Shown: positions 1 to 37,995 of the stretch, piece by piece
Numbering within the stretch: the stretch's first letter is position 1
Layout: every line of letters begins with the position of its first letter
Origin: a virus
Strand: one strand, 5' to 3'
DNA: 37,995 nucleotides
Virus record (IMG/VR): IMGVR_UViG_3300048080_000252
Coordinates: 1 to 37,995 of that record
Notes under the pieces: model-generated
What the model saw: only the letters and a program-made list of their open reading frames with translations
Told to the model about the DNA's origin: nothing
The model's database searches: none
Program-made: the position numbers and the translations under genes

Positions 1-43
1 CCAACGCCGGAGACCAGGCAATGCCGCGCCAGTTGTTGTCGGC
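1..43. repeat. Terminal overlap: nt 1-43 identical to nt 37953-37995 (assembly-type circular closure)
   Basis: Direct reading: ccaacgccggagaccaggcaatgccgcgccagttgttgtcggc occurs at both ends. The junction lies inside a 185-nt exact internal repeat (316-500 equals 37869-37995 plus 44-101). Confidence 0.9.
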
Positions 44-595
44 GGCGCTGGTGCGGATCGTCCAGGTGATCCCATCGGGCGAGGTCATCACCCGGTTGCC
101 CACCCCGCTGGCGAAGGCCACAGCCACGAACAGGCCGCGCTCAGGCGACCAGGCAATGGCAGTCCAGCCATTGTCGGCGGCGCTGGTACGGATCGTCCAG
201 ATGATCCCATCGGGTGAGGTCATTACCCGGTTGCCGACTCCGCTGCTGGCCACGACTGCGAACAGACCGAGCTGCAGCGACCAGGCGACGGCATTCCAGT
301 TGTTGTCGGCAGGCGTGGTGCGGATCGTCCAGGTGATCCCGTCGGGCGAGGTCATCACCCGGTTGTTCGTCCCGGTCTCCGCCACGGCCACGAACAGGCC
401 CAACGCCGGAGACCAGGCAATGCCGCGCCAGTTGTTGTCGGCGGCGCTGGTGCGGATCGTCCAGGTGATCCCATCGGGCGAGGTCATCACCCGGTTGCCC
501 GTCCCGTTGATGGCCACAGCCGCGAACAGGCCGCGCTCAGGCGACCAGGCAATGCCGTACCAGTTGTTGTCGGCCGCGCTGGTGCGGATCGTCCA
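1..595 (-). repeat. 132-nt (44-aa) coding tandem repeat array, terminator cassette, units 1 to mid-5
   Basis: Period-132 recurrence of ggtgcggatcgtccaggtgatccc(a/g)tcgggcgaggtcatcacccggttg. It translates on the minus strand to WTIRT(S/T)(A/P)ADNxWxxIAWSPxxGLFxAVAxxGxGNRVMTSPDGIT. Confidence 0.9.
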
Positions 596-883
596 AGCCA
601 CGCCCATCGCTCCCCGGAAGCCGTCCAGTGCCACCCGGACAGCGTTCATCACGCCCCGCAGCGCCGGATAGGTCGCGGCGGCCCCGGTGATCTGGAACCG
701 CGGATGCGCCAGGCCCGACGGCCCGCTGTGCGAGCGCACCCTGGGCCCGGAGATCCGCTGGTAGACGAGGTACGGCAGGGCGGCCTCCTGCGGCGCTTCG
801 ATCGGGTAGATGCGTGTGCCCACCAGGGCTGCCACGCCGGCGTTGTTCTTGAGGTGCTCGTACAGCGCCTCCTCGATGACCAT
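1..883 (-). CDS. Tail terminator (DUF3168/SPP1 gp17-like) carrying an inserted 7-unit propeller-like repeat cassette; 5' part, continuing at 37952..37537 if the contig is circular
   Basis: ATG at 883 abuts the TAG (884-886) of the upstream gene. The N-terminus (MVIEEALYEHLKNNAGVAALVGTRIYPIEAPQEAALPYLVYQRISG...) looks like a tail terminator and sits in the terminator position after the gp15/gp16/gp16.1-like genes. From residue 97 the frame reads 44-aa WTIRTSAADNNW..GNRVMTSPDGIT units. The ORF is open to nt 1 and absent from the ORF track only because it has no stop in the window. 883+416 nt = 433 codons, in frame with the right-end ORF. Confidence 0.75.
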   Translation of the reverse strand, partial: MVIEEALYEHLKNNAGVAALVGTRIYPIEAPQEAALPYLVYQRISGPRVRSHSGPSGLAHPRFQITGAAATYPALRGVMNAVRVALDGFRGAMGVAWTIRTSAADNNWYGIAWSPERGLFAAVAINGTGNRVMTSPDGITWTIRTSAADNNWRGIAWSPALGLFVAVAETGTNNRVMTSPDGITWTIRTTPADNNWNAVAWSLQLGLFAVVASSGVGNRVMTSPDGIIWTIRTSAADNGWTAIAWSPERGLFVAVAFASGVGNRVMTSPDGITWTIRTSAADNNWRGIAWSPAL

Positions 884-1357
884 CTAGCCGTTCTCCACTG
901 CCCCGCGCAGGACGTCTCCGACGGCGGCGACGGCCTGCCCCTGACGCTCGTCCATCGCCGGCCGCAGGAAGGGCCTCGCCGCCATGCCCGGATGCTGCAC
1001 CGCCCGGGCGAAGACCACCGTATCCCCGACCTCGAAGCGCAACCGCTTCGCCAGCTTCGGCTTGATCTCGTGCGGGTCGGCGCCGAGCTCGAAGAACCTG
1101 TGGTACCAGTGCTTCTTGTCCGAGCCGATGTCCACTCGCACCTGGCCCTTCCTCGAGAGGACGACCGTCCGCGTGTCGACGCTGCCCGGGCTAGGCGCTC
1201 CCGCGTCGGCCGCCGCCCGAATCACGCCGGCGCCGGCCTGGGCTGCGCGCACCGCCACCGAACGGATAGACTCAGCCCTGGCCAGAAGTTGAGCCCGCAG
1301 CTCGTCGAGACCCTGCATCTTCGCCTTGATCCGAATCGTTCCCCCCGCCTTGGCCAT
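884..1357 (-). CDS. HK97 gp10-like neck/tail-completion protein (SPP1 gp16.1 position)
   Basis: 157 aa. The C-terminal region (...HWYHRFFELGADPHEIKPK...VQHPGMAARPFLRPAMDE) is typical of the HK97-gp10 family, and the gene follows the head-closure gene. Confidence 0.75.
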   Translation of the reverse strand: MAKAGGTIRIKAKMQGLDELRAQLLARAESIRSVAVRAAQAGAGVIRAAADAGAPSPGSVDTRTVVLSRKGQVRVDIGSDKKHWYHRFFELGADPHEIKPKLAKRLRFEVGDTVVFARAVQHPGMAARPFLRPAMDERQGQAVAAVGDVLRGAVENG

Positions 1358-1675
1358 CTACACCGCCTCGATACACATCAGCTGTAGCTCCCGCCGCCGC
1401 GCCTCGGTCTCGATCACCGCCTGGACATCATAGAAATGGCTACCCCAAACCACGCGCATCTGCGGCACGATCCCCGCCCGGTAGCGGATGCGGATCCTCG
1501 TCGTCACCTCGGCCTGGAGCTGGCGGGCTTCCAGGAACTCTCGCCCCTGCAAAGGCTCGACGCTGGCCCAGACCGTGGCCACCGCGTTCCACGCCTCGAC
1601 CTCGCCGCCGAAGGTGTCCCGCGTGGGAGCCTTCTGCTGGATCGTCACCCGGTGGCGCATCCTCCCGGCGCGCAT
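1358..1675 (-). CDS. Head-tail adaptor / head-closure protein (SPP1 gp16-like)
   Basis: 105 aa: MRHRVTIQQKAPTRDTFGGEVEAWNAVATVWASVEPLQGREFLEARQ...TRIRIRYR...MRVVWGSHFYDVQAVIE. This is the classical Phage_H_T_join-type pattern. Confidence 0.8.
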   Translation of the reverse strand: MRAGRMRHRVTIQQKAPTRDTFGGEVEAWNAVATVWASVEPLQGREFLEARQLQAEVTTRIRIRYRAGIVPQMRVVWGSHFYDVQAVIETEARRRELQLMCIEAV

Positions 1676-1676: not shown

Positions 1677-2261
1677 TCAGAAACTCAACGCGCGCAGCTG
1701 CCACATCAGGCGGTCGTAGGCCATCGGCAGGTCGACGGCTGTAAGCCCCGGCTGCACGGCCACCGCCTCCCGGTTCTCGTACCAGTGCCCCACCAGGAGC
1801 AAGACCGCCTGCTTGGCGCCCTGCGGCACGGCTGCGGCCGCCCCATAGCCGGCGACGAAGCGCACCATGACCGCGCCCGCCGCCCACAGCGTCGTCGAGG
1901 GCCAGGTGAAGCCGGACTTCAGGACGATGCGCCCGAACAGCTCCGACGTGTCGACCACATAGTTGGCTGCCGGGTACGTCAAGACGGTCCCGTCCTGATC
2001 CTTGTAGGTAATGCTGGTGACCGACGCCAGCGGCGGTAGCGGGAGCTCGAGTTCGGCCTCAGCGGGGAACGCATCAAGGATGAGATCCCACGTCTGGCTG
2101 ACGAGGGCCCGCCGGGTATCGTTCTCGAACTGCTCGCGAGCGCCTTGGATCAGCCCGCTGATCAGCGCGTCGTCGTCGGTGACGTCGACCCGCAGATGAG
2201 CCTTGGCTTCTCCCAGGGTTACCGGCTCCGTGGCCGGCGCGGTCACCAGCACCAGTCCCAT
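1677..2261 (-). CDS. gp6/gp15-like head-tail connector (DNA-packaging QLRG-type) protein
   Basis: 194 aa: TLGEAKAHLRVDVTDDDALISGLIQGAREQFENDTRRALVSQTW...AKQAVLLLVGHWYENRE. This is the typical connector motif pattern, and the gene sits between the capsid and head-closure genes. Confidence 0.8.
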   Translation of the reverse strand: MGLVLVTAPATEPVTLGEAKAHLRVDVTDDDALISGLIQGAREQFENDTRRALVSQTWDLILDAFPAEAELELPLPPLASVTSITYKDQDGTVLTYPAANYVVDTSELFGRIVLKSGFTWPSTTLWAAGAVMVRFVAGYGAAAAVPQGAKQAVLLLVGHWYENREAVAVQPGLTAVDLPMAYDRLMWQLRALSF

Positions 2262-5215: not shown

Positions 5216-6106
5216 TCAGCTCACAAAGGCCGTGATCCAGGGCAGCGCCACGGCCGCGCCACCCAGGGCGGGCACTCGGCCGCCGCCCGTCGAAGGTCGA
5301 TTGACTTCACTGGCAAACAGCCCCGACTGCAGATCGTCGGCAAGGGCCGCGCGGATCGCCGCCGCGGTCGTCGCCTGGTTGCCGATGGCCGCCCACAGTT
5401 CGTCGCCCGGCTGGGCCGCGACCGAAAGGGAAACCGCCTGGCTCTTCAGGCCAACAGAGTTGACGACGGCTGCCACGTTGGCGAAGCCGAGGAGGGTCAG
5501 TGCTGGGTTGCCGGCCAGCACCGGGACGCCCCGGTACACGGCTGCCTCGGCCCAAGTGATCGTGACCGCGGCGGTCGTCACCCGGAAGCGCAGGGTGATC
5601 GAGCTCGAGCTCTTCGGGCAGACGCCCAGCCAGACATAGAATGTCTGGGTCGAAGCGAGAGCGAGCGCCGCCGTCAGGTTGGCCGCATCGAAAGCGCCCC
5701 GTAGCAGCTGCCCCATCCGCACAATCGTGCCGGCCGCCTTGGGTGCGCCGGCGGCATTGAGCACCATCCAGCCGGCGCCATCCTGCCAGATGAGCTGCTC
5801 GCCCACCTCCAGGGTGACCTTGACGAGCGTCCGCTGGTTGGTGCCGTCGTACATCTCGACCGTGATGACATGCGGGATCGTGTCGACGTTGAAGAAGTCG
5901 AGGTACTTCGTTTGGCGCTGCGTCGAAGCCGCCGGCGACGCCACGATCGTGACAGGCGTCGTCCCGTTCAGGACGGTCATCAGATTGCCCGGCGTGAAGG
6001 CCGTGGCCGTCACGTCCGCCCAGTCCGAGATGGCGTGCGGATTGCTCGCGGCGATCGCCTCGCCCAAGAAGGCCCGCACGCTCTTGGAAGTCGTGTCGAG
6101 GATCAT
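5216..6106 (-). CDS. Hypothetical beta-rich protein, partner of the fibre-like gene
   Basis: 296 aa. The ATG at 6106 overlaps the upstream stop (TGATG). No motif recognised. Confidence 0.75.
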   Translation of the reverse strand: MILDTTSKSVRAFLGEAIAASNPHAISDWADVTATAFTPGNLMTVLNGTTPVTIVASPAASTQRQTKYLDFFNVDTIPHVITVEMYDGTNQRTLVKVTLEVGEQLIWQDGAGWMVLNAAGAPKAAGTIVRMGQLLRGAFDAANLTAALALASTQTFYVWLGVCPKSSSSITLRFRVTTAAVTITWAEAAVYRGVPVLAGNPALTLLGFANVAAVVNSVGLKSQAVSLSVAAQPGDELWAAIGNQATTAAAIRAALADDLQSGLFASEVNRPSTGGGRVPALGGAAVALPWITAFVS

Positions 6107-6618
6107 CAGAATCCCACCGACAAGCGGGCCAGCACCTGCGCCTGGCTCAGGCCGCCACCCCCGCCGGCGGGGGTGGCCAGCGTGCCATCATCACGGACGA
6201 ACTTCGTCCCATCCGGCAGGCCGCTGGCCAGCTGGGCCATCGGGACCTGCCCTCCGGCGCCCAACGAGGCATAGCCATTCGCTTGACCCTTCTCCGTCTC
6301 CTTCTGGTAGCCCGCGTGCGGGTCGGCGGCGGCCTCGTGGGCCGCTACCGCGCCCGCCAGCTCATAGACACCGACATGGCCATGCCCCGAGGACGAAGCC
6401 CCGATCGCCGCCGGCGTCAGGATGTCCGGCTGCCCAGTCGCATGACGCGCCGCGTGGTCCTCGGCATGTGTCGGCTGATTGAGCGCCAGCTTGCTCTCCA
6501 CAACGCCTGCGCCAGCGGCCACGTCGACGTTTACGATGCCGCCCAGCGTGCCGTCCGCCTCGAGCTGTGCCCGGGTGATCTTCTGCCCCTGGGGCGTGGA
6601 GAGCGTGATCTTGCCCAT
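6106..6618 (-). CDS. Fibre-like protein (tail-fibre-type motifs) encoded inside the head module
   Basis: 170 aa with HAARHATGQPDILTPAAIGA, KGQANGYASLGAGGQVPMAQL and DGTKFVRDDGTLATP, motifs I associate with phage tail-fibre proteins. The ATG overlaps the portal stop (TGATG). Confidence 0.7.
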   Translation of the reverse strand: MGKITLSTPQGQKITRAQLEADGTLGGIVNVDVAAGAGVVESKLALNQPTHAEDHAARHATGQPDILTPAAIGASSSGHGHVGVYELAGAVAAHEAAADPHAGYQKETEKGQANGYASLGAGGQVPMAQLASGLPDGTKFVRDDGTLATPAGGGGGLSQAQVLARLSVGF

Positions 6619-9116
6619 CAGCGCTCGAAGTACTCCCTCTCGCCTTCGATCTCCGTTATCTGCCCGTCGCGGCGACGGACCTTCTGCGTTTCCTTCATCC
6701 GCTTCGGGTAGGTCGGTTGATTCACGACCGTCACCGGAGCCGGCTCGATGTGCGCCTCTACCTTGACTTCCGGCGCGGGCAGGTTCAGGGCGGCGATTGC
6801 CTCGCCCACGCGCCCCATCCCCCGTTCCATCGCGTCGGCCACCGGCTGCATATCGGCCGCCGGCACTTCGATGCGCGGCTCGGACCTGACTTCCGGCGCC
6901 GGCAGCTTCAGGCCGTCGATCGCCTCGCCCATGCGGCTCATCCCTCGTTCCATCGCGTCGGCCACCGGCTGCATATCAGCCGCTGGCACTTGGCCAACCA
7001 CGACCTGCCCCAAAGCCTCGAGTGCCTTGGCGTTCATGGCCAGGACCCGGGCGATCGCTAGCGAATGGCTCGCCTCGGCTCCTCTCTCGCTTCGCGGCTC
7101 GTCGAGAAGATCCCGCGATCGCCCGCCCTCGGCCGTCACCATGCAGTCGCACCCCTCGTGCGCGGGCGGATGCCCGACGTCGTGATCGTTCACCAGCGGC
7201 ACGTCGGCGCCGCTCGGCTGGAACGACTCCCCCGCGCTCAGGAAGTTCCCCTGGATCCCGATCACCTTGCCATTCAGCCGCGAGCAGTACGGGCAGTTCT
7301 CGCCCTGAGCGTTCCAGCGCAGGCGGGCGATCCCGGCCACCAGGAAGACGAACCTGGCCACGGCGTTGTTGGCGCGGATCGTCTCCCACTGAGCGACCTT
7401 GTCCGGCCGCCGCTCCTCCCACTCGGCGAAGCGCTCGTCCAACGCCTCGATGGGATCCCGGCCAGCCTCGACGGCCTCGCGCGCCACCTGGCGCACCTGG
7501 CCGATGCTCGAGCCCACGTGCCGGCTGGCGTAGGCCTCGCCGTACTCACCGACGAACTGCTCGAGCTCGGGCGTCACCTCCGGCTCGGCGCCCACCTCAT
7601 CGGCCGCCGCGGCCGCGACGACTTCGGCGTAACTGTTGAAAGCCGGCGCCATCTGGCGCAGGATGAAGTCCTTGTGCTCCTCGTAGAACGTCTCCAGCCA
7701 CAAGCTGAACTCGGCGAAGCCGCGCTGGCGGAAATGCTTCCGCGCGCCCTCGCGCACGTCCTGGATCTCCCGGCGGACAACCCTCCGGGCCGCATCTGCG
7801 AAGACGCGCTGATAGGCGGTGGCCAGCCGCCGGCGGGAGAGGCCAGCCTGGCGTGCGCGTTGCTCGCCGTGGGGGTCGGCCGACACCGTGCGGCCATCGA
7901 GCGAACGCACGCCGGCGCCGGCCTGGTCGGCGGGGATCATGTTTAGCGGGACCAGGTAGACGTCGCCGCCCTTGATGGGGTTCTGGTTCTCGAGCTCCCG
8001 GATATCGTTGGCGTTGAACCAGCCCCACTGACGGGCCGTGGCGTAGGCCTGGTAGCGCGTCTGCGTGTCGCCCCTCAGGAGCGCGTCGACCAGGAATTCG
8101 GCGAAGAACTCCCTGCGGTCGGCCGCCGTGAACAGGTCCCGCAGGATCGCCTGTTCCCAACGGACCAGCCAGGTCCGGACCGAGCCGGTGACGAAGTCGA
8201 TGGCCTGGTGCTCGATGTTGGAGAACGTCGCCCGCTCGAGATCGGCGATCTTGTGCGGCGGCACGTTGTAGATGCGCGCGATCTCGGCCACCTGGAAGCG
8301 ACGGGTCTGCAGGAACTGAGAATCCTCGGGAGGGAAGCCGATCTTCTCGGCCTTCATCCCCTCTTCGAGAATGGCCATCCGGTGCTTTTTCTTAAGCGGT
8401 CCGTACTCCTCCTGCCAGGACTCGCGGATGTTCTTCTCCGCCGCGGGCTTGAGCTTTCCGGGGTGTTGCAGCACCAGCCCGGGCGTCGCATCGTTTCCAA
8501 AGAAACGCGCCCCGTACTCCTCCGTCGCCATCGCCAGAGCGATCGCCTGGCGCGCCAGGGAGACCGGCGAGTAGCCGACCAAGCCGTCGAAGCCCAGCCC
8601 CTTCACGTGGAAGACGAGCTCCTTGGGCAGGGTGATTTCATTGCCACCCACCGACTCGGGGAGGCGGTAGAGATACTGGAGCTGACCCTGGCGCCGGCGG
8701 ACTTTCATCCGGTCGGGCCGCAACGGCCAGACAGCGCGCACTCTGCCGAATCCGTCGAGCTCGATCTCCCCGTAGGCGTTGCCCCACGTAAGCAAGTGGC
8801 CCATCTTCGTTTCGCGGAACTCAAGGCTCGTCATCTCGGGATTGGGCTGGTTGTGCAGGAGCGGGTACAGGTAGTGATCGGTCGCCCGCCTCTTGCCCCC
8901 ACCCGGCAGCCGTTGGTAAACCACGAGCGGCAGCGAGGCGACACTCTCCGCAAGCACACGGACGCAAGCCAGGACGGCCGTCACCTGGAGGGCGTTCTCG
9001 GGCGTGACGTGGACGCCGGTGGCCGTCTCCCATCCGAAGGCCGAGGCCAGGAGCCACTTCGGAGGCTCCTGCGACGGGTGGAAACGCTCCTCCATCGCGC
9101 GGACGAGAAGGCCCAT
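6618..9116 (-). CDS. Portal protein (HK97 family) fused to a Mu F/SPP1 gp7-like head-morphogenesis domain and a duplicated C-terminal segment
   Basis: 832 aa. The N-terminal ~400 aa are portal-like (..ALQVTAVLACVRVLAESVASLPL..YPLLHNQPNPEMTS..). Residues 607-653 (NCPYCSRLNGK...HPPAHEGCDCM) carry the MuF/gp7 signature. Two 41-aa repeats follow. Confidence 0.8.
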   Translation of the reverse strand: MGLLVRAMEERFHPSQEPPKWLLASAFGWETATGVHVTPENALQVTAVLACVRVLAESVASLPLVVYQRLPGGGKRRATDHYLYPLLHNQPNPEMTSLEFRETKMGHLLTWGNAYGEIELDGFGRVRAVWPLRPDRMKVRRRQGQLQYLYRLPESVGGNEITLPKELVFHVKGLGFDGLVGYSPVSLARQAIALAMATEEYGARFFGNDATPGLVLQHPGKLKPAAEKNIRESWQEEYGPLKKKHRMAILEEGMKAEKIGFPPEDSQFLQTRRFQVAEIARIYNVPPHKIADLERATFSNIEHQAIDFVTGSVRTWLVRWEQAILRDLFTAADRREFFAEFLVDALLRGDTQTRYQAYATARQWGWFNANDIRELENQNPIKGGDVYLVPLNMIPADQAGAGVRSLDGRTVSADPHGEQRARQAGLSRRRLATAYQRVFADAARRVVRREIQDVREGARKHFRQRGFAEFSLWLETFYEEHKDFILRQMAPAFNSYAEVVAAAAADEVGAEPEVTPELEQFVGEYGEAYASRHVGSSIGQVRQVAREAVEAGRDPIEALDERFAEWEERRPDKVAQWETIRANNAVARFVFLVAGIARLRWNAQGENCPYCSRLNGKVIGIQGNFLSAGESFQPSGADVPLVNDHDVGHPPAHEGCDCMVTAEGGRSRDLLDEPRSERGAEASHSLAIARVLAMNAKALEALGQVVVGQVPAADMQPVADAMERGMSRMGEAIDGLKLPAPEVRSEPRIEVPAADMQPVADAMERGMGRVGEAIAALNLPAPEVKVEAHIEPAPVTVVNQPTYPKRMKETQKVRRRDGQITEIEGEREYFER
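6765..6990 (-). repeat. 123-nt tandem duplication within the portal-MuF C-terminus
   Basis: gacttccggcgc(g/c)ggcag(g/c)ttcagg...ccatcgcgtcggccaccggctgcatatc(g/a)gccgc(c/t)ggcactt occurs at 6765 and 6888. It encodes VPAADMQPVADAMERGM(S/G)R(M/V)GEAI..L.LPAPEV twice. Confidence 0.85.
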
Positions 9117-9307
9117 CAGTCTCTACCCCCGCTACGGCGTACCCGTCGGGCGGCGAGCTCGGCCGACAGCAACGCACCCAGGAGCAGCACGGCCCCGACC
9201 ACGATGAGCGCCAGCGATGGAGAGACGAGCCACAGGCCCACACCCATCATCGCCAGCCCTACGAAGGCGACGAGATCCCGCGCGTCCAAGGCAGGCCTCG
9301 GAGTCAT
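9116..9307 (-). CDS. Small two-TM membrane protein between terminase and portal
   Basis: 63 aa: ..LVAFVGLAMMGVGLWLV..LALIVVGAVLLLGALL.. Its ATG overlaps the TerL stop (ATGA), and its stop overlaps the portal ATG. Confidence 0.6.
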   Translation of the reverse strand: MTPRPALDARDLVAFVGLAMMGVGLWLVSPSLALIVVGAVLLLGALLSAELAARRVRRSGGRD

Positions 9308-10884
9308 AACGTCACGAGCCCCCGGGTCTCATACACCGACCCGGACTCGCCCTGGCGAATCGCCCGGTCGAGCGCCATGATCAGCGCCACGATGCCGTCG
9401 ATCTTCTCCCGGCTCTTCTTCTTGTCGGGCTTCATGTTTCCCGCCGGATCCGTCGTCACCATCATGTTGTCTGCCATCCACCGGAGCACCGGGTGCCCGC
9501 CGTGCGCGATCTTCTTGTCGAGCGTGAGGCGCAGGAGCTCTTTCGTCGGGCCGCTCATTGAGGCAAAGCCTTGGCCGAACGCCACCATCGTGAAGCCCTC
9601 AGCTTCGAGCTGCTGGCTCATCTGGATGGCACCCCATCGGTCAAACGCAATCTCTCGGATATGGAACCGCTTGCCCAGCTCGACAATGTCGGCCACGATC
9701 TGTGCGTAGTCGATGACGTTGCCGGGAGTGGCCTTAATGAAGCCCTGGCGAACCCACGCGTCGTAGGGCACTCGGTCCCTCAGCGCCCGTTCGCGCATGT
9801 TCTCTTCGGGGATCCAGAAGAACGGCAGGACCGTGTGGAGCTCGGGATCATCCGGGCCGGGCGGGAAGTCCAGGAGGAACGATGCGATGTCGACCGTGCT
9901 GGCCAGATCTAGCCCGCCGAAACCGGCCTGGCCCACAACCACATCGACCTCGGCATCGCAGTCGTCCCAGGCCTCGAGAGGCAGCCAGCGCACATCCTGT
10001 TGTGTCCAGCGGTTCAGATGGAGGCGCAGGAAGGTATTCAGATACGCTGGCGTCAGCTGGGCCCGCTTGCACTCGGCCGCCAGGTACTCCTCTTTCACCG
10101 TCACGCCTAGGCCTGGGTTCGCCTTGCGCCAGGTCTTGGGATCCGTCCAGTCGTCCTCTTCATCCGCGGCCCGGACATAGGCGAAGAACTCATCGTCAAC
10201 GATGATCCCTTCCAGAACTTGGCGGGCATACTCGTGCTGCTCCCAGCAGATGCTCTCGCGGTCATAGCCGGCTGTGGTGATGGCCACGACTAGCGGCTGC
10301 CGGCGAGAGCGAGTGCCGGTCGTCAAGACATCCCACAACTCGCGGCTCGGCCAGGCATGGAGCTCGTCGGCGATCACACCGTGCGCGTTGAAGCCGTGCT
10401 TCGTCTTGACGTCCGCGCTCAGGACCCGATAGACGCTCGCGCTTGAGGGAACGACGACGGAGCGCTTATAGGTCTCCGCCCGATGGCTCAGCACCGGCGA
10501 CGCCTCGACCATCTGCTTGGCCAGGTCGAACACGATCGCCGCCTGCTCCCGATCCGAGGCCGCGCCGTACACCTCGGCCCCCGGTTCATCGTCCACGAAG
10601 ACAAGCAAGAGGGCGATTCCGGCCACGAGGGTTGACTTCCCATTGCCCCGCGGGAGCTCGATGTAGGCGCGTCGATATCTGCGCGTCCCATCGCTCTTCC
10701 TCTTCCAGCCAAACAGAGGCCGGATAATGTCGTCGCGCTGCCAAGACGAGAGGATGAAGGGCTCGCCCGCCCATTCGCCCTTCACGTGAATGAGAAGTTT
10801 CTCAAAGAACATCACCGCAAGATCGGCGGCCTGCTCGTCGAAATAGAAACCGCTGGACTTCTTGCGCCCGTTGGACTTCGTCAT
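9304..10884 (-). CDS. terL: Terminase large subunit (Terminase_1-type)
   Basis: Start trimmed to the ATG at 10884, which overlaps the TerS stop (ATGA). MTKSNGRKKSSGFYFDEQAADLAVMFFEKLLIHVKGEWAGEPF..., Walker A-like PRGNGKST, C-terminal nuclease-like region. Confidence 0.9.
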   Translation of the reverse strand: MTKSNGRKKSSGFYFDEQAADLAVMFFEKLLIHVKGEWAGEPFILSSWQRDDIIRPLFGWKRKSDGTRRYRRAYIELPRGNGKSTLVAGIALLLVFVDDEPGAEVYGAASDREQAAIVFDLAKQMVEASPVLSHRAETYKRSVVVPSSASVYRVLSADVKTKHGFNAHGVIADELHAWPSRELWDVLTTGTRSRRQPLVVAITTAGYDRESICWEQHEYARQVLEGIIVDDEFFAYVRAADEEDDWTDPKTWRKANPGLGVTVKEEYLAAECKRAQLTPAYLNTFLRLHLNRWTQQDVRWLPLEAWDDCDAEVDVVVGQAGFGGLDLASTVDIASFLLDFPPGPDDPELHTVLPFFWIPEENMRERALRDRVPYDAWVRQGFIKATPGNVIDYAQIVADIVELGKRFHIREIAFDRWGAIQMSQQLEAEGFTMVAFGQGFASMSGPTKELLRLTLDKKIAHGGHPVLRWMADNMMVTTDPAGNMKPDKKKSREKIDGIVALIMALDRAIRQGESGSVYETRGLVTL

Positions 10885-14329: not shown

Positions 14330-16071
14330 CCGAACAGGTCCTCGCTCGCCCTCAGTTCCGCCGCGCCCTCGATCAACTGCAGGGTCCGGAGCTTGCCGAG
14401 CGCATTCAGGAAGCCGCCGCCGGTGGCCACGTACGGCTCACCGCCAGTTCCGACGGTCCGTTCTGCGACCTCTTCTTTCGTGAGCGTCGACGGATACACC
14501 TCGCCCAGGACCCGCAGGATCTCCCTCTCCGCCCGGCCGAAGTGTGACGATCGCAGCCAGTGATCCACGAGCTCGGGCCCGGGCGGGGGCAGCGGTTCCC
14601 AGGCGTCCCCGATCGCAGCCTGGCCATCAGGTGTGAGTTCGAGCTGCTGCTTGGCGCCCCGGATCCAGCCCTTGGTGCGCAGCGATCCGACGGCGTTGAG
14701 GAAGCCGCCACCCGAGGACGCATAGGACGCCAGCAGCGCCACCTGGGTCTGGGTGCGCCCCTGGGGATACTGCGCCAGGACGGAGAGGATCCTGCGCTCG
14801 GCTTTCGAGAGAGACGGATCCCCGTTTGCACGACTTCCGGGAAGTCGTGAAGTTGGCTCCGGAGCTGGGCGAGACAAGTAGCCCTTGCTGAAGGTAGCCC
14901 TTGCTGTCGACGCACCAACCGATCGCACCGGAGCCTGGAAGGCCGGCTGCACCGCCCGCAACCTAAGCGCCGTCCCGATCTCCTCGCCCACACCGGCGAT
15001 CTGCTTCCCGCTGGCCACGAGTGCAGCGGCCGCCGCCTCGAGCCGGCTCAGCTCGCCATCTGAGAAGACTGGGATCTCGACGCGCTCGACGACCCGCTCG
15101 ACCTTCGGCTCGATCTGGACCGGCCGGGCCCGTAGCTCGCGCTCCAGCTCGGCGATCCGCTGGCGGGCGGACGTCATATCCTTCGCCTGGTCCTCGGCCT
15201 GCTTCGGGAGATCGGCCAGCGCCGGCAGGAGCTTCTTGACCTTCTCCGGCGCCGGCGGAGGGGCGGGAGCCTGGACCTCGGCGCCGACGTCGGGGTGCGT
15301 TGTCTCGATCGGCCCGACCCGGAAGAGCGTCCGCACCAAACAGAGAGCCCGTCCGAACGCGTAGAACGTCCCGGGCTCGAAGGTCCTCATCTCCAGGGCT
15401 GCTTGGAGTCGGGCGGCTTTCCCCGAGATCGACAGGAGATCCAGGGCACGGTCGACGTCGACGTCTTCGAAGTGCTGCCCGATCAACCGGTTCAGCATGA
15501 GGGCGCTGACGTTCTTGTCGAGCCGGCTGAGACGCTGGGTGGCCAGGACAGCGCCAAAGCCACGCTTCCGGCCGCGGCTGGCGAGCGAGATCATCGCCTC
15601 CTTGGCCTCGCTCTCTCCCTGGCCTTTCTCGGGGGCGAACATCTGAGATTCGTCGACGATCACCACGACGGGGTGCCAGAGGCTCTTGGGCGCGTCGATC
15701 AGCGCCTCGAGGAAGAGCCGCACCCACCGATGCCGCTCGCTCGGCTTCATCTCGAAAAGATCGCATACGGCCGACGCCTTGAGCTCGAGCAGCTTGTGAG
15801 CTAGAAGCGCAGCCGAGCGGACATCCGCCGGCGTCTCCCCGCCCTTGCCCACCAGGACGTAGCCGTACTTCTCACGGAGGCTGGCGAATTCGCCCTCGGG
15901 GTCGATGAGGAGCACTTGGACCTTGCCGAACAGCTGCTCGGCGATCCGGCGCAGGAGCCAGGACTTGCCCCCACCACTGTTCGCTGTGAGCAGAAGCCGG
16001 GTTCGCAGCACCGTCGGCAGATCCAGGACGATCGCCTTGCGGCCGGCGTGGCCGAGCGTTACGGTGGCCAT
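14326..16071 (-). CDS. HerA/FtsK-superfamily (DUF87-like) P-loop ATPase with two C-terminal winged-helix-like repeats
   Basis: Start trimmed to the ATG at 16071, which overlaps the upstream stop (TGATG). Walker A TANSGGGKSW, LLIDPEGEF, Walker B VVVIVDESQMF, ASRGRKRGFGAVLATQRLSRLD. The C-terminus repeats ..ILSVLAQYP..GGGFLNAVGSLRTKGWI.. and ..ILRVLGEVYP..GGGFLNALGKLRTLQLI.. Confidence 0.75.
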   Translation of the reverse strand: MATVTLGHAGRKAIVLDLPTVLRTRLLLTANSGGGKSWLLRRIAEQLFGKVQVLLIDPEGEFASLREKYGYVLVGKGGETPADVRSAALLAHKLLELKASAVCDLFEMKPSERHRWVRLFLEALIDAPKSLWHPVVVIVDESQMFAPEKGQGESEAKEAMISLASRGRKRGFGAVLATQRLSRLDKNVSALMLNRLIGQHFEDVDVDRALDLLSISGKAARLQAALEMRTFEPGTFYAFGRALCLVRTLFRVGPIETTHPDVGAEVQAPAPPPAPEKVKKLLPALADLPKQAEDQAKDMTSARQRIAELERELRARPVQIEPKVERVVERVEIPVFSDGELSRLEAAAAALVASGKQIAGVGEEIGTALRLRAVQPAFQAPVRSVGASTARATFSKGYLSRPAPEPTSRLPGSRANGDPSLSKAERRILSVLAQYPQGRTQTQVALLASYASSGGGFLNAVGSLRTKGWIRGAKQQLELTPDGQAAIGDAWEPLPPPGPELVDHWLRSSHFGRAEREILRVLGEVYPSTLTKEEVAERTVGTGGEPYVATGGGFLNALGKLRTLQLIEGAAELRASEDLFG

Positions 16072-16337
16072 CAGACTGTGGCAGGCTCCTCGCCAAGCGT
16101 TCCCGAATCCCAGCCGTCCAACATCACCCACTCGTGCCAGCCGCAGCCGTCCTCCGGGCACACGAGGCTCGGCGTCACATAGCCGCCCATCCCGATCGTG
16201 TGATCCGCCAGGGAAGCGGTGTGGCCGTTGGCGCAAGTGACCATCGCGCTCTTCCTGCCATCGGCCCGCGTGACGGGCCACCAGGTCAGGGGCCCGCCAT
16301 TCCAGCGCTCAGTTGATTGCCGCAGCTCGACCGGCAT
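16071..16337 (-). CDS. Hypothetical small Cys/His-rich protein
   Basis: 88 aa: ..CANGHTASLADH...LVCPEDGCGWHEW.. Confidence 0.6.
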   Translation of the reverse strand: MPVELRQSTERWNGGPLTWWPVTRADGRKSAMVTCANGHTASLADHTIGMGGYVTPSLVCPEDGCGWHEWVMLDGWDSGTLGEEPATV

Positions 16338-16338
16338 T

Positions 16339-16587
16339 TCAGTCCGCCCCGATCGTCACGTGCCCGACCAGCACGCGGATGTCGACCAGCACCTTGGTCT
16401 CACCCACCGCCACGGGGAAGCTCTCGCCGGCCCGCAACGACCGCGGGTTCAACTTGCAGCGCGTCGCCTTCTTGCCGTACTTGGCCTCATAGAAGGCCGC
16501 GGCGCGGGCGATCTTCTCCTCGATCGGGGCCTTGCCATCCTCGAGGAGCCAGAGCATCGAACGTGCGCGCACACGAACCTCGCTCAC
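16339..16587 (-). CDS. Hypothetical small protein
   Basis: Start trimmed to the GTG at 16587, which overlaps the upstream stop (GTGA). 82 aa: VSEVRVRARSMLWLLEDGKAPIEEKIARAAAFYEAKYGKK... Confidence 0.55.
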   Translation of the reverse strand: MSEVRVRARSMLWLLEDGKAPIEEKIARAAAFYEAKYGKKATRCKLNPRSLRAGESFPVAVGETKVLVDIRVLVGHVTIGAD

Positions 16588-18460: not shown

Positions 18461-18785
18461 CGTGCTCAGGCCTCTTGGTAGCGAGCCAGCCGTTCCGGGA
18501 GAGAAGATCTCCTAGGGCCATCGCCAACCGGTCCACGTCCTCGTCCTTCTTCAACCCCAGGCCCAACTCGGAGTCGATGGCATGTAGACACTCGTGGAGC
18601 AAGCCCTGGAGCACATCGGCGTCGTTCCGTCCGTTGTCGTAGATCCGGATGGTCCTGCTCCAATAATCGCACTGGCCCCAGAGCGACTGCCGGCCATAGA
18701 GGTCAACATCCGAAGGGCGATCGCAGTAAGTGATCGCGTAGGACTTCCCCAGAATGTTGACGGTCGTCGGACGGAAGGCCATCAC
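18450..18785 (-). CDS. Small HExxH (zincin-like) protein
   Basis: 111 aa with LLHECLHAI after a beta-rich N-terminus. The ATG overlaps the ParB-like stop (ATGA). Confidence 0.6.
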   Translation of the reverse strand: MMAFRPTTVNILGKSYAITYCDRPSDVDLYGRQSLWGQCDYWSRTIRIYDNGRNDADVLQGLLHECLHAIDSELGLGLKKDEDVDRLAMALGDLLSRNGWLATKRPEHDED

Positions 18786-29485: not shown

Positions 29486-29521
29486 TTGCAGTCGACACCG
29501 CCTCCTCCGTTCATCGAAACC

Positions 29522-32500
29522 TCACTGCCCGGTCATCGCCCGGTTGCCGGTGCCGCTGCCGGCCACGGCGGCGAACAGACCCAAGGCGGGAGACCAAGCG
29601 ATGCCATCCCAGCTGTTGTCGGCCGGGCTCGCGCGGATCGTCCAGTTGATCCCGTCGGGGGAGATCATCGACCGGTTGCCGACGCCGCTGTAGGCCACGG
29701 CCGCAAACAGGCCCAGCTCGGGCGACCAGGCGATGCCATCCCAACTGTTGTCGGCGGCGCTGGTACGGATCGTCCAGTTGATCCCGTCGGGCGAGGTCAT
29801 CACCCGGTTGCCCACGCCCGTTTCGGCCACGGCGGCGAACAGACCCAAGGCGGGCGACCAAGCGATGCCATTCCATCTGTTGTCGGCCGCGCTGGTGCGG
29901 ATCGTCCAGTTGATCCCGTCGGGCGAGGTCATCACCCGGTTGCCCACGCCGCTGTAGGCCACGGCGGCGAACAGACCCAACGCGGGCGACCAGGCGATGC
30001 CCGCCCAACTGTTGTCGGCCGCGCTGGTGCGGATCGTCCAGTTGATCCCGTCGGGCGAGGTCATCACCCGGTTGCCGACGCCGCTGGCGGCCACGGCGGC
30101 GAACAGACCCAAGGCGGGAGACCAAGCGATGGCGTGCCAGAAGTTGTCGGCGGCGCTGGTACGGATCGTCCAGTTGATCCCGTCGGGCGAGGTCATCACC
30201 CGGTTGCCCACGCCGCTGCCGGCCACGGCGGCGAACAGACCCAAGGCGGGAGACCAAGCGATGGCGAGCCAGAAGTTGTCGGCGGCGCTGGTACGGATCG
30301 TCCAGTTGATCCCGTCGGGCGAGGTCATCACCCGGTTGCCGACGCCGCTCTTGGCCACGGCGGCGAACAGACCCAAGGCGGGCGACCAGGCGATGTCCGC
30401 CCAGCCGTTGTCGGCCGCGCTGGTGCGGATCGTCCAGTCTAATTTAGCAAAGGCGAACTCGCTCCGCCACGTCGTTCGCACGAGCATCCCGGCACGGTCA
30501 AGCCACTCGTGCTCGACCATCCCCAGGCGGCCGTAGTCGTCGATGCCGTAGTCCGGAAGCCGGAGACGGATCCTATCCAGCAGGTCGGCGGCAAATTGGA
30601 GGTCCGGCCGGCCGACTACACTCACCAATGGATACAGATGCTGGCCGGAGAGGAGGCTCGCCAGCAGGGCGGCGATCTCCTGGCCCTTGGCCGTGTTCTG
30701 CTGCCAGGGCAGGTCGTGCTCGAAGACGCTTCTCACATTGGCGGCCGCCGTGGCCTCGAGGATCGTGGGATTGGGCTCTGCCAACGCATCGCCGCGGACC
30801 TTGAGCAGCGTGATGTATCCGTTTACGCCCCCGGTGTTCGACACCACGAGCTTCACCGTCAGGCCGAAGACCGTCGCCACTACGGTGAAGTTTCCCGTTA
30901 GATTCGTCCCGCTGCCATCCGAGGCCGAGTTCATCAGGTAGTCCGTCGTGGCTACCGGCGTCAGCACGCCGAGCGCGGGGACTTCCTGGTTGTTGTAGGA
31001 AAACGGCGCGAAGAGAGTCAGCGACTCGCCGGCGGGGACGAAGGGCGTGTCCTGCAACCGCCACAGCTCGCCGGTCGCCTGGCGCACACGGGGATGGACG
31101 ATGACTTTGGCCTTGCCCCGCACGATCTCCCACGGCTGGGGCAGGCCGACCTCCCGCTGCACGTCCGCCTGATAGACAGTTAGAACGACGTCGTCAGAGG
31201 CATACCGGCCGCGGAACTTCGCCTTGCCGTCGGCGGCGATGGTGAACAGGCCGAGCTCGCTCTCCGCCAGGTCCTGGATCTCCTGGTCCGCCTGGCGGCG
31301 GTCCGCCCACCAGTAGCGGATCGTGTCGGCCGAGCCGATCAGGTCACGGCCCCACAGCGCCGGCCAGGAGACGTCGTCGAGCACCAGCCCGATCGCCGTC
31401 CCCGTGGCGATGTTCTCCTTGACGGCGATGCTGGTGGAGCGCTCCTTGAGCCAGGCCCATCCGTCCTCGAGGACGATCTGCACACGGGGATTCAGCACGT
31501 CGCCCGAAGGGCGGAGATCGGCGATGCGTCCGGCGAAGACGGGATGCGTGACAAGGCCGTCGTGGACCCGGATCCTGGCAAAATGCCCGGGCTTGACATT
31601 GGGATAGAGTGGCGAGGCCACGTTGTAGGCGTTGTAGCGACCCTGCGGGTTGTTGAGGACCGCCGTCGCCGTCCCCACGGAGAACCGCTCGAAGCCGTCG
31701 CCGCCGGGCTTGATGAAGAAATCGCGGCCGCGCCGGCCCTTGAGGTCCACGAGGTTCTGTGCTTCGTCTGCATCAGGAACCGTCACCGAGGTCATCGCCC
31801 GGTTTCCGGTGCCGCTCTGCGCCACGGCCGCGAACAGGCCCAGTGCAGGCGACCAGGCGATGCCGAGCCACTGGTTGTCGGCAGCGCTGGTGCGGATCGT
31901 CCAGTTGATCCCGTCCGGCGAAGTCATCGCCCGGTTGCCGGTGCCGGTGAGGGCCACCGCCCCGAACAGGCCCAGCTCAGGGGACCAGGCGATGCCGTAC
32001 CAATCATTGTCGGCCGGAGTGGTGCGGATCGTCCAGTTGATCCCGTCAGGCGAAGTCATTGCCTGGTTGCCCACGCCGGTACGTGCCACGGCTACGAATA
32101 GGCCCAGTTCCGTAGACCAGGCGATGGCGTTCCAGTTGTTGTCAGCCGGAGTGGTGCGAATCGTCCAGTTGATCCCGTCGGGCGAGGTCATCGCCCGGTT
32201 GCCGGCGCCGCTCTGGGCCACGGCCGCGAACAGGCCGAGCTGCGGCGACCAGGCGATGCCACTCCAGTTGTTGTCGGCCGGAGTGGTGCGGATCGTCCAG
32301 TTGATCCCGTCGGGCGAGGTCATCGCCCGGTTCCCCACGCCGGTTACCTGTGCCACGGCTACGAATAGGCCCAGTTCCGTAGACCAGGCGATGGCGTTCC
32401 AGTTGTTGTCAGCCGGAGTGGTGCGAATCGTCCAGTTGATCCCGTCGGGCGAGGTCATCGCCCGGTTGCCGGCGCCGCTCTGGGCCACGGCCGCGAACAG

Positions 32501-33682
32501 GCCGAGCTGCGGCGACCAGGCGATGCCACTCCAGTTGTTGTCGGCCGGAGTGGTGCGAATCGTCCAGTTGATCCCATCCGGCGAGGTCATCGCCCGGTTT
32601 CCGGTGCCGCTCTGCGCCACGGCCGCGAACAGGCCCAGCGAAGGTGACCAGGCGATGGCGACCCACAAGTTGTCGGCGGAGGTCATGACCCGGTTGCCGA
32701 TCCCACTCCAGGCCACGGCTGCGAACAGGCCCAGCTGCGGCGACCAGGCGATGCTGTACCAGTTGTTGTCGGCCGGGGTGGTGCGGATCGTCCAGGTGAT
32801 CCCGTTGGGCGAGGTCATCACCCGATTGCTGACGCCGCTGTAGGCGACAGCCGCGAACAGCCCGAGCTCAGGCGACCAGGCGATGCTGTACCAGTTGTTG
32901 TCGGCCGGAGTGGTGCGAATCGTCCAGTTGATCCCGTCGGGCGACGTCATCACCCGATTGCCGGTCCCGCTGTTGGCCACGGCCGCGAACAGACCCAACG
33001 CCGGCGACCAGGCGAGGCCATACCACTGGTTGTCGGCCGGGGTGGTGCGGATCGTCCAGTTGATCCCGTCGGGCGAGGTCATCGCTCGATTGCCGGTCCC
33101 GCTGTTGGCCACGGCCGCGAACAGACCCAACGCCGGCGACCAGGCGATACCCTGCCAGTTGTTGTCGGCAGCGCTGGTACGGAGCGTCCAGTTGATCCCG
33201 TCGGGCGAGGTCATCACCCGGTTGCCCACCCCGCTAGAAGCCACAGCCACAAACAGGCCGAGAGCAGGCGACCAGGTGATGCCATACCAACTGTTAAGGC
33301 CGGGCGTGGTGCGGATCGTCCAGTTGATCCCGTCAGGCGAGGTCATCGCTCGATTGCCGGTCCCGCTGTTGGCCACGGCCGCGAACAGACCCAACGCCGG
33401 CGACCAGGCGATGGCGAACCAGCTGTTGTCGACGGGGGTGGTACGGAGCGTCCAGTTGATCCCGTCGGGCGAGGTCATCACCCGGTTGCCCACCCCGCTA
33501 AAGGCCACGGCCGCGAACAGACCGAGCTCAGGCGACCAGGCGATCCCCAGCCAATTGTTGTCCGGGGTGGTGCGGAGCGTCCAGGTAGGCGGCGAGGAGC
33601 GCAGCATCCAGGTCAATTTGTCAAACGCGCCATCGTCATCCCAGTCGACCTGGAATTCCCAGCGCAGAGCCGGTAGCGTCAT
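29522..33682 (-). CDS. Dit-like distal tail protein (1386 aa) carrying three 7-unit propeller-like cassettes
   Basis: The ATG overlaps the tape-measure stop (ATGA). The non-repeat parts are residues 1-23 (..RWEFQVDWDDDGAF..) and 633-1082 (..GRRGRDFFIKPG..ATAVLNNPQGRYNAYN..YITLLKVRGDAL..MVEHEWLD..). Repeats occupy residues 24-632 (14 units) and 1083-1386 (7 units). Confidence 0.8.
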   Translation of the reverse strand: MTLPALRWEFQVDWDDDGAFDKLTWMLRSSPPTWTLRTTPDNNWLGIAWSPELGLFAAVAFSGVGNRVMTSPDGINWTLRTTPVDNSWFAIAWSPALGLFAAVANSGTGNRAMTSPDGINWTIRTTPGLNSWYGITWSPALGLFVAVASSGVGNRVMTSPDGINWTLRTSAADNNWQGIAWSPALGLFAAVANSGTGNRAMTSPDGINWTIRTTPADNQWYGLAWSPALGLFAAVANSGTGNRVMTSPDGINWTIRTTPADNNWYSIAWSPELGLFAAVAYSGVSNRVMTSPNGITWTIRTTPADNNWYSIAWSPQLGLFAAVAWSGIGNRVMTSADNLWVAIAWSPSLGLFAAVAQSGTGNRAMTSPDGINWTIRTTPADNNWSGIAWSPQLGLFAAVAQSGAGNRAMTSPDGINWTIRTTPADNNWNAIAWSTELGLFVAVAQVTGVGNRAMTSPDGINWTIRTTPADNNWSGIAWSPQLGLFAAVAQSGAGNRAMTSPDGINWTIRTTPADNNWNAIAWSTELGLFVAVARTGVGNQAMTSPDGINWTIRTTPADNDWYGIAWSPELGLFGAVALTGTGNRAMTSPDGINWTIRTSAADNQWLGIAWSPALGLFAAVAQSGTGNRAMTSVTVPDADEAQNLVDLKGRRGRDFFIKPGGDGFERFSVGTATAVLNNPQGRYNAYNVASPLYPNVKPGHFARIRVHDGLVTHPVFAGRIADLRPSGDVLNPRVQIVLEDGWAWLKERSTSIAVKENIATGTAIGLVLDDVSWPALWGRDLIGSADTIRYWWADRRQADQEIQDLAESELGLFTIAADGKAKFRGRYASDDVVLTVYQADVQREVGLPQPWEIVRGKAKVIVHPRVRQATGELWRLQDTPFVPAGESLTLFAPFSYNNQEVPALGVLTPVATTDYLMNSASDGSGTNLTGNFTVVATVFGLTVKLVVSNTGGVNGYITLLKVRGDALAEPNPTILEATAAANVRSVFEHDLPWQQNTAKGQEIAALLASLLSGQHLYPLVSVVGRPDLQFAADLLDRIRLRLPDYGIDDYGRLGMVEHEWLDRAGMLVRTTWRSEFAFAKLDWTIRTSAADNGWADIAWSPALGLFAAVAKSGVGNRVMTSPDGINWTIRTSAADNFWLAIAWSPALGLFAAVAGSGVGNRVMTSPDGINWTIRTSAADNFWHAIAWSPALGLFAAVAASGVGNRVMTSPDGINWTIRTSAADNSWAGIAWSPALGLFAAVAYSGVGNRVMTSPDGINWTIRTSAADNRWNGIAWSPALGLFAAVAETGVGNRVMTSPDGINWTIRTSAADNSWDGIAWSPELGLFAAVAYSGVGNRSMISPDGINWTIRASPADNSWDGIAWSPALGLFAAVAGSGTGNRAMTGQ
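29525..30436 (-). repeat. 132-nt coding repeat array, Dit C-terminal cassette (7 units)
   Basis: WTIRTSAADNxWxxIAWSPALGLFAAVAxSGVGNRVMTSPDGIN occurs seven times. The last unit is truncated at ..GNRAMTGQ*. Confidence 0.9.
31787..33613 (-). repeat. 132-nt coding repeat array, Dit N-terminal insertion (14 units = 7+7)
   Basis: Units WT(I/L)RTTPADNxW...GNR(A/V)MTSPDGIN. An internal junction ..GNRVMTS|ADNLW.. lacks 12 aa exactly between units 7 and 8. The array ends ..GNRAMTS|VTVPD. Confidence 0.9.
32083..32599 (-). repeat. 267-nt higher-order (two-unit) duplication inside the N-terminal array
   Basis: 32083-32332 and 32350-32599 differ at 3 of 250 positions by direct alignment. Confidence 0.9.
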
Positions 33683-36295: not shown

Positions 36296-36305
36296 AGCGT
36301 GCCTC

Positions 36306-37140: not shown

Positions 37141-37143
37141 CGC

Positions 37144-37536: not shown

Positions 37537-37995
37537 TCACTCCCCGTGCCACAGCACGACATCGAGCCGCGCCACGAAACTTTCCTCGCTGTCCATCTCG
37601 TTCTCAACCAGGGCGGCCCCCACCGGTACCCCTGGTGAGGTCATCACCCGGTTGCCCACCCCGCTAAGGGCCACGGCCACGAACAGACCGCGCTCAGGCG
37701 ACCAGGCGATAGCAGTCCAGCTATTGTCGGCGGGCGTGGTGCGGATCGTCCAGGTGATCCCATCGGGCGAGGTCATCACCCCGTTGCCCGTCCCGCTAAG
37801 GGCCACGGCCACGAACAGACCCAGCTGCGGCGACCATGCGATGGCTCGCCAGTTGTTGTCGGCGGCGCTGGTGCGGATCGTCCAGGTGATCCCGTCGGGC
37901 GAGGTCATCACCCGGTTGTTCGTCCCGGTCTCCGCCACGGCCACGAACAGGCCCAACGCCGGAGACCAGGCAATGCCGCGCCAGTTGTTGTCGGC
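37537..37995 (-). CDS. 3' part of the tail terminator-propeller gene (continuation of 883..1 across the junction)
   Basis: Open from the right window edge to the stop at 37537-39, in the same frame as the left part once the 43-nt overlap is removed. It contains units 5-7 and ends with the non-repeat tail GVPVGAALVENEMDSEESFVARLDVVLWHGE*. Confidence 0.75.
   Translation of the reverse strand, partial: ADNNWRGIAWSPALGLFVAVAETGTNNRVMTSPDGITWTIRTSAADNNWRAIAWSPQLGLFVAVALSGTGNGVMTSPDGITWTIRTTPADNSWTAIAWSPERGLFVAVALSGVGNRVMTSPGVPVGAALVENEMDSEESFVARLDVVLWHGE
37633..37995 (-). repeat. 132-nt coding repeat array, terminator cassette, units mid-5 to 7
   Basis: Same unit as 1-595. The 7th unit is truncated at ..GNRVMTSP. 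Confidence 0.9.

Follow-up and report, generated by a model that had tools for sequence, protein, structure and literature searches.

A siphophage tail terminator gene carrying a predicted seven-bladed propeller in a hairpin loop

The terminator locus

We analysed a 37,995-nt window of viral DNA (IMG/VR record IMGVR_UViG_3300048080_000252, the whole stretch from position 1 to 37,995; 66% G+C), the two ends of which together encode a minus-strand gene assigned here to the gp17-type tail terminators and interrupted by a repeat array. The open reading frame (ORF) opens with an ATG at 883-881, directly adjoining the TAG of the upstream gene (884-1357), and stays open down to nt 1. The first 43 nt of the window are identical to the last 43 nt. 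Past this terminal overlap the frame resumes at 37952 and closes with a TGA at 37539-37537, three bases ahead of the ATG of the next gene. Without the overlap the ORF comprises 883+416 = 1299 nt and encodes 432 aa plus the stop. The intact ORF is thus coupled, stop to start, to both neighbouring genes.

The 432-aa product consists of 96 non-repeat residues, seven repeat units (44, 44, 44, 45, 44, 44 and 40 aa; consensus WTIRTSAADNNWxGIAWSPxxGLFVAVAxxGxGNRVMTSPDGIT) and a 31-aa tail (GVPVGAALVENEMDSEESFVARLDVVLWHGE). The units form an insert of 305 aa (915 nt, 33 kDa), and Tandem Repeats Finder (TRF) detects a 132-nt period at both ends of the window. The seventh unit is shortened, ending ...NRVMTSP without the closing SPDGITW turn. 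An earlier note, made from the letters alone, had proposed this layout: a start against the TAG of an HK97-gp10-like gene, 96 aa followed by seven 44/45-aa units and a 31-aa tail, and an in-frame continuation in the right-end ORF (stop 37537) once the overlap is removed. Translation and TRF bear it out, with a last unit of 40 aa, and the upstream gene matches phrog_5.

Long ORFs also run antisense to repeat arrays (window 21-671, plus strand, 216 aa; 28478-30442, plus strand, 654 aa); in a genome of this G+C content they are almost certainly not genes.

Family assignment of the flanking segments

The whole protein matches PF11367 (Tail_completion_gp17, formerly DUF3168) over residues 5-88 (E 3.5e-12, 47.0 bits; curated cutoff 24.5 bits). 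The joined flanks (residues 1-96 plus 402-432, 127 aa), which the earlier note had set beforehand as the test for a terminator, match the same family at E 2.6e-13 and 50.6 bits, with the C-terminal segment aligning to profile positions 95-129 as a second stretch of the hidden Markov model. The joined flanks also match phrog_347 ('tail terminator') over residues 1-119, and phrog_123 ('tail terminator') is matched too. Two uninterrupted 126-aa proteins (P0121 and P0122) are 90% identical to the joined flanks with 100% of the query covered, and P0124 and P0126, encoded on syntenic phage contigs, are 78-81% identical. Thus the proposal that 96 + 31 aa make up a normal terminator with a domain inserted in a loop is sustained. 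The family profile finds terminator gp8 of PDB 9lbn (E 4.7e-5) and Rcc01690, the tail terminator of the Rhodobacter capsulatus gene transfer agent (RcGTA; E 0.006).

When AlphaFold2 is given the whole 432-aa protein, the segments on either side of the insert come together as one domain with a predicted local distance difference test score (pLDDT) of 90-98. The domain comprises helices at residues 3-13, 15-21 and 72-86 and strands at 25-27, 38-43, 62-68, 91-93, 409-416 and 421-427. Foldseek matches it to terminator gp8 (9lbn_K) with probability 1.0 (TMt 0.57, root-mean-square deviation 2.6 A, 80 columns), so that the modelling suggested in the earlier note also returns a single terminator domain.

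The order Ad1-Hc1-Ne1-terminator-...-tube-chaperones-tape measure is the same in the window and in four relatives (L001, L008, L010 and L012). The product exceeds the small single-domain size usual for the family (~125-150 aa), its 432 aa being due to the 305-aa internal insert. By family matches, predicted fold and gene position, we identify the gene as a genuine gp17/DUF3168-type siphophage tail terminator. Neither the ORF list nor the family search returned a second, intact terminator gene in the window. Compared with L001 and L005, the terminator flanks have a ratio of nonsynonymous to synonymous substitution rates (dN/dS) of 0.21, inside the span of 0.13-0.50 seen for neighbouring genes, and the G+C content at third codon positions in the cassette (0.88) equals that of the late genes.

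Closure of the array and number of units

The last 127 nt of the window (37869-37995) are identical to 316-442, and the first 101 nt to 400-500. The closure of the contig therefore falls within a 185-nt exact repeat, whose second copy consists of 37869-37995 plus 44-101; units 2 and 5 are 100% identical. This repeat accounts for the break of the contig at this point. For the same reason the unit number is formally 4+3n, with seven as the minimum.

Two contigs from the Logan collection, a separate assembly procedure that was probably applied to the same reads, match the window exactly (both from run SRR35513625). Contig L006 equals window 566-1528 and crosses the N-side junction between terminator and repeats, and contig L007 equals window 33472-37666 and crosses the C-side junction. 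The longest exact match between the cassette and the rest of the genome is 35 nt, and the cassette is ~85% identical in nucleotides to the other propeller arrays of the genome, which makes a k-mer mis-join implausible. In 102 of 120 homologous propeller modules we count six regularly spaced SxDGxxW turns, corresponding to seven units; the seven-unit solution thus gives the canonical module. Given the conserved flanks, the canonical size, the Logan contigs and the limited sharing, n=1 and continuity of the gene are the only reasonable reading.

The insertion point

Relatives read ...LDGFRGTMG-GGVGV-GAALVENE..., and the window reads ...LDGFRGAMG-VA[305 aa]-GVPV-GAALVENE.... The insertion point is therefore MG|GGVGVG, a Gly-rich loop whose length varies among the relatives, and the junctions are ...MGVA|WTIRT and ...MTSP|GVPVG. 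Residues of the terminator are neither lost nor duplicated (96+31 = 127 aa vs 126-128 aa). In the AlphaFold2 model the insert leaves the terminator domain between strands 91-93 and 409-416, in the beta-hairpin turn downstream of the third helix (profile position ~94). From what is known of the family, the loop would be exposed outward; the literature searched holds no usable statement on the position of the corresponding hairpin in solved terminator rings.

We also considered two other origins of the insert. An intein or mobile element does not fit: inteins have a nucleophile (C/S/T) at the N-terminal end of the insert and after its C-terminal end as well as a terminal HN, the junction residues here are unfit, and we found no match to an intein or endonuclease family and no convincing target-site duplication. 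A recent copy from the phage's own fibre-like gene is likewise rejected, as the units share only ~85% nucleotide identity and exact stretches of at most 35 nt with it.

The propeller module

With an alignment restricted to propellers (identities 47-81%), AlphaFold2 models the insert of 305 aa on its own at a pLDDT of 97.2 and a predicted template modelling score (pTM) of 0.93, with 28 strands in seven groups of four. The model supports the earlier suggestion of a complete seven-unit propeller, and we describe the insert as a predicted complete seven-bladed beta-propeller of the fibre type. The cassette has six SPDGI[TI]W turns, its seventh unit closing in TSP, and all seven blades keep the conserved W/G/D positions. 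It matches PF24130 just above the cutoff (27.9 bits, cutoff 27).

The canonical Asp-box motif is SxDxGxTW. The turn in the cassette, SPDGxTW, is one residue shorter, and a Pfam search gave no BNR family match.

Among viral structure models (BFVD), the best Foldseek match of the insert is a phage protein of 1020 aa that has an intramolecular-chaperone domain (TM 0.98, 67% identity); among the others are a collagen-repeat protein of Hokovirus and the tail fiber of a Caulobacter phage. In the PDB the insert matches only generic seven-bladed propellers, such as YCF48 (TM 0.72) and WD40 proteins, at 10-18% identity, and a PDB sequence search with the propeller gave WD40 matches at chance level only. 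The full-length query retrieves >6600 proteins, all via the propeller (~70% coverage). Homologues of the propeller are fused to DUF2793, Peptidase_S74, Sipho_Gp37, FN3, Big_2, tails of the type IX secretion system (T9SS) and others. Among isolated phages, 11 of 50,697 records contain the module, under the labels hypothetical, tail fiber, gene transfer agent (GTA) host specificity protein and ycf48-like. By these sequence matches, the module is recognizable as a very common but uncharacterised part of phage fibre and receptor-binding proteins.

All cassettes in this lineage start (W)T[IL]RT and end NR[VA]MT(SP). The module thus opens with an outer (D) strand, WTIRT, and closes with a C strand, NRVMTSP. 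Because the first strand completes the last blade, at what would be the seventh SPDGITW turn, the two ends should lie side by side in one blade. From this strand order, rather than from coordinates, we infer that the adjoining ends would suit plugging into the tip of a hairpin without distorting the host domain.

Insertions in other terminators

We scanned 1.84 billion representative proteins with the terminator profile (HMMER), which gave 24,415 family members, and assessed the sizes of the best 150. Most of these 150 (142) consist of a single domain (~124-151 aa); seven contain the entire domain twice in tandem, and one (P0343) carries an insertion. In P0343 (333 aa) an unrelated domain of ~200 aa occupies the same profile position (~92-95), and P0346 (329 aa), 46% identical to P0343, has the same architecture. 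Contigs from two or more samples carry the gene for P0343 in the expected gene order (L014, 6001-7002; L015, 1660-2661). Its ~200-aa insert has no sequence match in Pfam or the PDB. In another lineage, then, this loop stably carries a domain. The first of the two contigs also has six tandem paralogous genes (~119-121 aa each; L014, 7510-9694) that separate the tail tube gene from the gene of the terminator with the insert.

The seven duplicated proteins (P0203-P0205, P0211, P0266, P0294 and P0331; 282-436 aa) were examined as candidate insertions and rejected, being tandem duplications instead. Such two-domain gp17 chains could form pseudo-hexamers from trimers. One of them, P0203, has an extra domain of ~140 aa between its two gp17 copies.

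The earlier note had stated that no terminator with an insertion of this kind has been described. For the literature searched this is upheld: no paper ties a terminator to a propeller insert. It falls short for the databases, which hold the undescribed lineage of P0343 and P0346 with a different domain in the same loop.

Genome context and relatives

Upstream of the terminator gene, sequence matches identify Hc1 and Ad1, with which the SPP1/HK97-type neck module is complete (Table 1). Directly after the gene for the 637-aa tape measure lies a gene for a 1386-aa protein with ~14 propeller units at its N-terminus and 7 units at its C-terminus, around a core of ~450 aa. Four propeller copies therefore occur in this phage: one in the terminator loop, a double one at the N-terminus and one at the C-terminus of the post-tape-measure protein. 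The corresponding protein in relatives has 571-678 aa and no terminal propellers.

Table 1. Features of the terminator locus and related genes in the 37,995-nt window.
Feature	Position	Strand	Evidence and remarks
N-terminal 96 aa of terminator	596..883	-	Helices 1-3, strands 1-4; ends ...LDGFRGAMGVA; PF11367 aa 5-88; pLDDT 90-98
Propeller units T1-T4 and start of T5	1..595	-	T1 595-464, T2 463-332, T3 331-200, T4 199-65, T5 from 64; translation, TRF
Remainder of T5, then T6 and T7	37633..37952	-	T5 to 37885, T6 37884-37753, T7 37752-37633
C-terminal 31 aa of terminator and TGA	37537..37632	-	GVPVGAALVENEMDSEESFVARLDVVLWHGE; last two strands of terminator domain; pLDDT 93-95
43-nt terminal overlap	37953..37995	.	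Copy of window 1-43, within unit T5
Internal copy of 185-nt exact repeat	316..500	.	End of T1, T2, start of T3
HK97-gp10-like / Ne1 neck protein gene	884..1357	-	phrog_5 E 4.9e-12; weak PF04883 match
Head completion protein Hc1	1358-1675	-	PF05521 E 8.7e-35 and PF05135 / phrog_442 for the Hc1 and Ad1 pair
Head-tail adaptor Ad1	1677-2261	-	PF05521 E 8.7e-35 and PF05135 / phrog_442 for the Hc1 and Ad1 pair
Two small ORFs downstream of terminator	37144-37533, 36781-37140	-	Gene calls on L007
Tail tube protein	36306-36737	-	PF16461/PF06199, phrog_158
1386-aa protein directly after tape measure gene	29522..33682	-	Three more propeller copies; TRF arrays 29531-30438, 31787-32657, 32672-33584

Relatives differ in where the module occurs. 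In L001, whose group has a terminator 81% identical to that of the window, the 571-aa homologue of the post-tape-measure protein carries repeat units at another, internal site (15618-15869 in gene 14670-16385), after ...GGGGGDLTLSP. This array is assembled as two units and is probably collapsed (k141 assembly), and the contig of L003 ends in its array at 12736. In L008 (terminator 78% identical) no propeller was found anywhere. The contig with the gene for P0124 (81% identical) is 36.9 kb long, shows synteny to the window (75-82% identical in nucleotides) and has the order capsid, two small genes, adaptor, head completion, gp10-like, terminator, two small genes, tube, chaperones, tape measure. 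According to these sequence comparisons, grafting of the module in this lineage has been repeated and recent, and it has respected the limits of the domain exactly.

By its capsid protein, the closest isolate is Streptomyces phage Chymera (51%). The window also encodes a large serine recombinase (24974-26488, plus strand) and two ParB-like proteins (17489-18460 and 18782-20566, minus strand), a gene content that points to a temperate and possibly plasmid-like lifestyle. The portal ORF (5216-7132, minus strand) is 832 aa long, vs 664-675 aa in relatives, and its C-terminal extension of ~170 aa holds a 123-nt tandem duplication (TRF, 6745-6991). Two ORFs between the portal and protease genes (170 and 296 aa) lack a counterpart in relatives, and a CCTCTC hexanucleotide is repeated 7.8 times at 21280-21326.

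A more distant relative, L012 (terminator 59% identical), has four extra genes in its neck module (5331-9504), between Hc1 and a 150-aa ORF. That ORF lies directly upstream of the terminator, the position taken by the gp10-like gene in the window, and no family is assigned to it. One of the extra genes encodes a 785-aa protein with a CBM96 domain, which may be another way to place a binding protein at the neck.

Proposed function and alternative explanations

We propose, with a probability of roughly 60%, that the gene encodes a terminator that still works and presents six propellers at the neck as accessory adhesins; display and binding are argued from family knowledge and by analogy. Hexameric rings with a role in joining head and tail are known for SPP1 gp17, lambda gpU and RcGTA g8 (PMC11784142, PMC7296036). 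Likewise, the terminator here would still form a hexameric ring atop the tail tube and still join the tail to the head. The terminator domain and the propeller are both predicted to fold independently, and the ring would bear six propellers projecting around the neck. Such a collar could serve as an accessory, low-affinity, multivalent adhesin for host surface glycans or polysaccharide, or for matrix, and so raise the capture of virions. Its analogues would be the carbohydrate-binding modules on lactococcal neck passage structures, tail-tube extensions and evolved Dit. An adhesin is the most likely role, since thousands of phage fibre and receptor-binding proteins have this module as their distal domain, and the tail-tip protein of this phage contains three copies of it.

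Several points weigh against this proposal. All 82 homologues of the joined flanks among 5.8 billion proteins are uninterrupted (114-157 aa), and the propeller insertion is seen in one sequencing run only. Junction DNA was not found in IMG/VR (both junctions) or in JGI metagenome contigs (N-junction). The unit number depends on closure through an exact repeat. The model of the whole protein has a pTM of only 0.48, with the propeller at pLDDT 50-65 in that run, because MAFFT mis-registered the repeats in the mixed alignment; Foldseek matches to the propeller part of that model are meaningless, and it was the propeller-only alignment that served for remodelling. Some loops of the RcGTA terminator touch the stopper and tube proteins (PMC7296036). 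Finally, the propeller family has no known ligand or binding site, and its neighbours in the PDB are generic.

The array could have come from another gene (the 1386-aa fibre-like one, or one of a co-occurring phage) and been mis-joined to the halves of a normal terminator, or the closure could be spurious: both contig ends lie in repeat, the 43-nt overlap sits inside the 185-nt exact repeat, similar arrays occur elsewhere in the genome, the contigs of relatives break or collapse in such arrays and a single run carries the sequence. We regard such an assembly artefact as highly improbable. It needs two mis-joins at the same terminator codon, both in frame and at module boundaries, with no residue lost, and the Logan contigs span both junctions at 100% identity. 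The cassette shares too little with the other arrays (at most 35 nt exact, ~85% identity), the window holds no second intact terminator gene, and seven units, the canonical size, result from the one route through the assembly graph in which each unit is used a single time. If the gene is taken as real, it might still be a recent, non-functional accident, either an evolutionary dead end or a prophage in decay, with a terminator that has lost the ability to assemble. The event is unique, relatives diverged by only 7-10% lack the insertion, the identical units 2 and 5 suggest a very recent rearrangement of the array, and the encoded serine recombinase would allow for a resident prophage. This explanation is unlikely in view of the state of the gene: the 915-nt insert is open and in frame, its seven blades keep the conserved W/G/D positions, its boundaries coincide with the module boundaries of thousands of other proteins, and both domains are predicted to fold. 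Moreover, the flanks show no raised dN/dS, every other virion gene is intact, and the same loop stably holds a domain of 200 aa in two proteins of another lineage that are 46% identical.

A functional propeller need not be adhesive. It might by its bulk shield the terminator monomer from Avs/STAND-type immune receptors that sense terminators, or form a collar with a structural task, as a docking site for the fibres of the phage itself or to stabilise the neck. T4 whiskers, neck structures that handle fibres, are a precedent for the latter. An Avs family has recently been reported to recognise tail terminators through interfaces that are extended and complementary in shape (PMC13581612), and head-tail joining proteins show so little domain variation (PMC10684548) that an exception invites a special explanation. 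We nevertheless consider a non-adhesive role doubtful: evidence on the host or on host defence genes is lacking, point mutations could achieve shielding, and the inserted domain is the one found at distal fibre ends and in the tail-tip protein, which fits ligand binding better than passive bulk. A bolder version of the proposal, which we rate as improbable, would have the propeller as a plug-in cassette that moves within one phage lineage from one virion protein to another, into loops and termini, always in frame and at the exact limits of the module, the terminator copy being a new neck collar that acts as a primary adsorption device or as a mask against Avs receptors.

Neck (head-tail joining) proteins are among the least modular of phage proteins; their structural diversity is unusually low in a survey of phage mosaicism (PMC10684548), and terminators are treated as minimal single-domain rings. 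On the proposal of a displayed adhesin, the terminator ring could act as a display scaffold, and the view that binding modules adorn siphophage virions from the tip onwards would extend to the neck. The permissive loop, which two lineages appear to have used independently, might be of use in phage engineering or display. With three further copies in the genome and another site in a relative, the gene is a clean natural case of very recent in-frame domain grafting.

Comparison with known systems

The gene most closely resembles the SPP1 gp17 / PF11367 terminators (Tc1 of type-1 necks; Rcc01690; 9lbn gp8), to which it is similar in sequence family, predicted fold and gene position, and with which it shares one normal-sized domain, assembled here from the N- and C-terminal segments. 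It differs in that those members are single-domain proteins of ~125-150 aa, whereas the terminator of the window carries a 305-aa propeller in the hairpin after helix 3. The undescribed metagenomic proteins P0343 and P0346 share loop, family and gene position with it, but their inserted domain is unrelated and their phage lineage is different.

In principle, the arrangement is similar to that of evolved Dit, tail-tube extensions (TpeX) and neck passage structures of lactococcal and Lactobacillus siphophages, where a conserved, ring-forming protein of the virion has an accessory binding module attached to it or set into one of its loops, and the module is displayed in many copies along the tail or neck. 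PMC6669499 reports experimental proof of host binding for some carbohydrate-binding modules at the neck or tail of 936-group phages. The carriers that its abstract names are the neck passage structure, the major tail protein and evolved Dit, and the terminator is not among them (PMC6669499). The lactococcal carriers have a beta-sandwich carbohydrate-binding module, unlike the seven-bladed propeller here, and the neck passage structure is a separate protein, whereas the propeller of the window is an insertion. With a terminator as scaffold and a propeller as module, the protein falls outside the class of evolved Dit and other proteins decorated with carbohydrate-binding modules, and the likeness is functional only.

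Contractile systems are the only ones for which the literature searched mentions terminators with extra domains (PMC11784142). These terminators (sheath-terminating proteins of myophages, PVC16) likewise combine the terminator fold with an extra domain (PMC11784142). Their extra domains are terminal and contact the sheath or duplicate the fold, in contrast to the internal, fibre-type propeller predicted here for a non-contractile tail.

The propeller itself resembles YCF48/BNR-type propellers and the phage fibre module (DUF7397 repeat; homologues are often labelled EPTP or 'ycf48-like') in its seven four-stranded blades with Asp-box-like turns between strands C and D. Its SPDGxTW turn is one residue shorter than an Asp-box, and the similarity to YCF48 is at the level of the fold only. 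What is new here is a member of a known family with an unprecedented but mechanistically understandable domain graft, and not a new kind of system.

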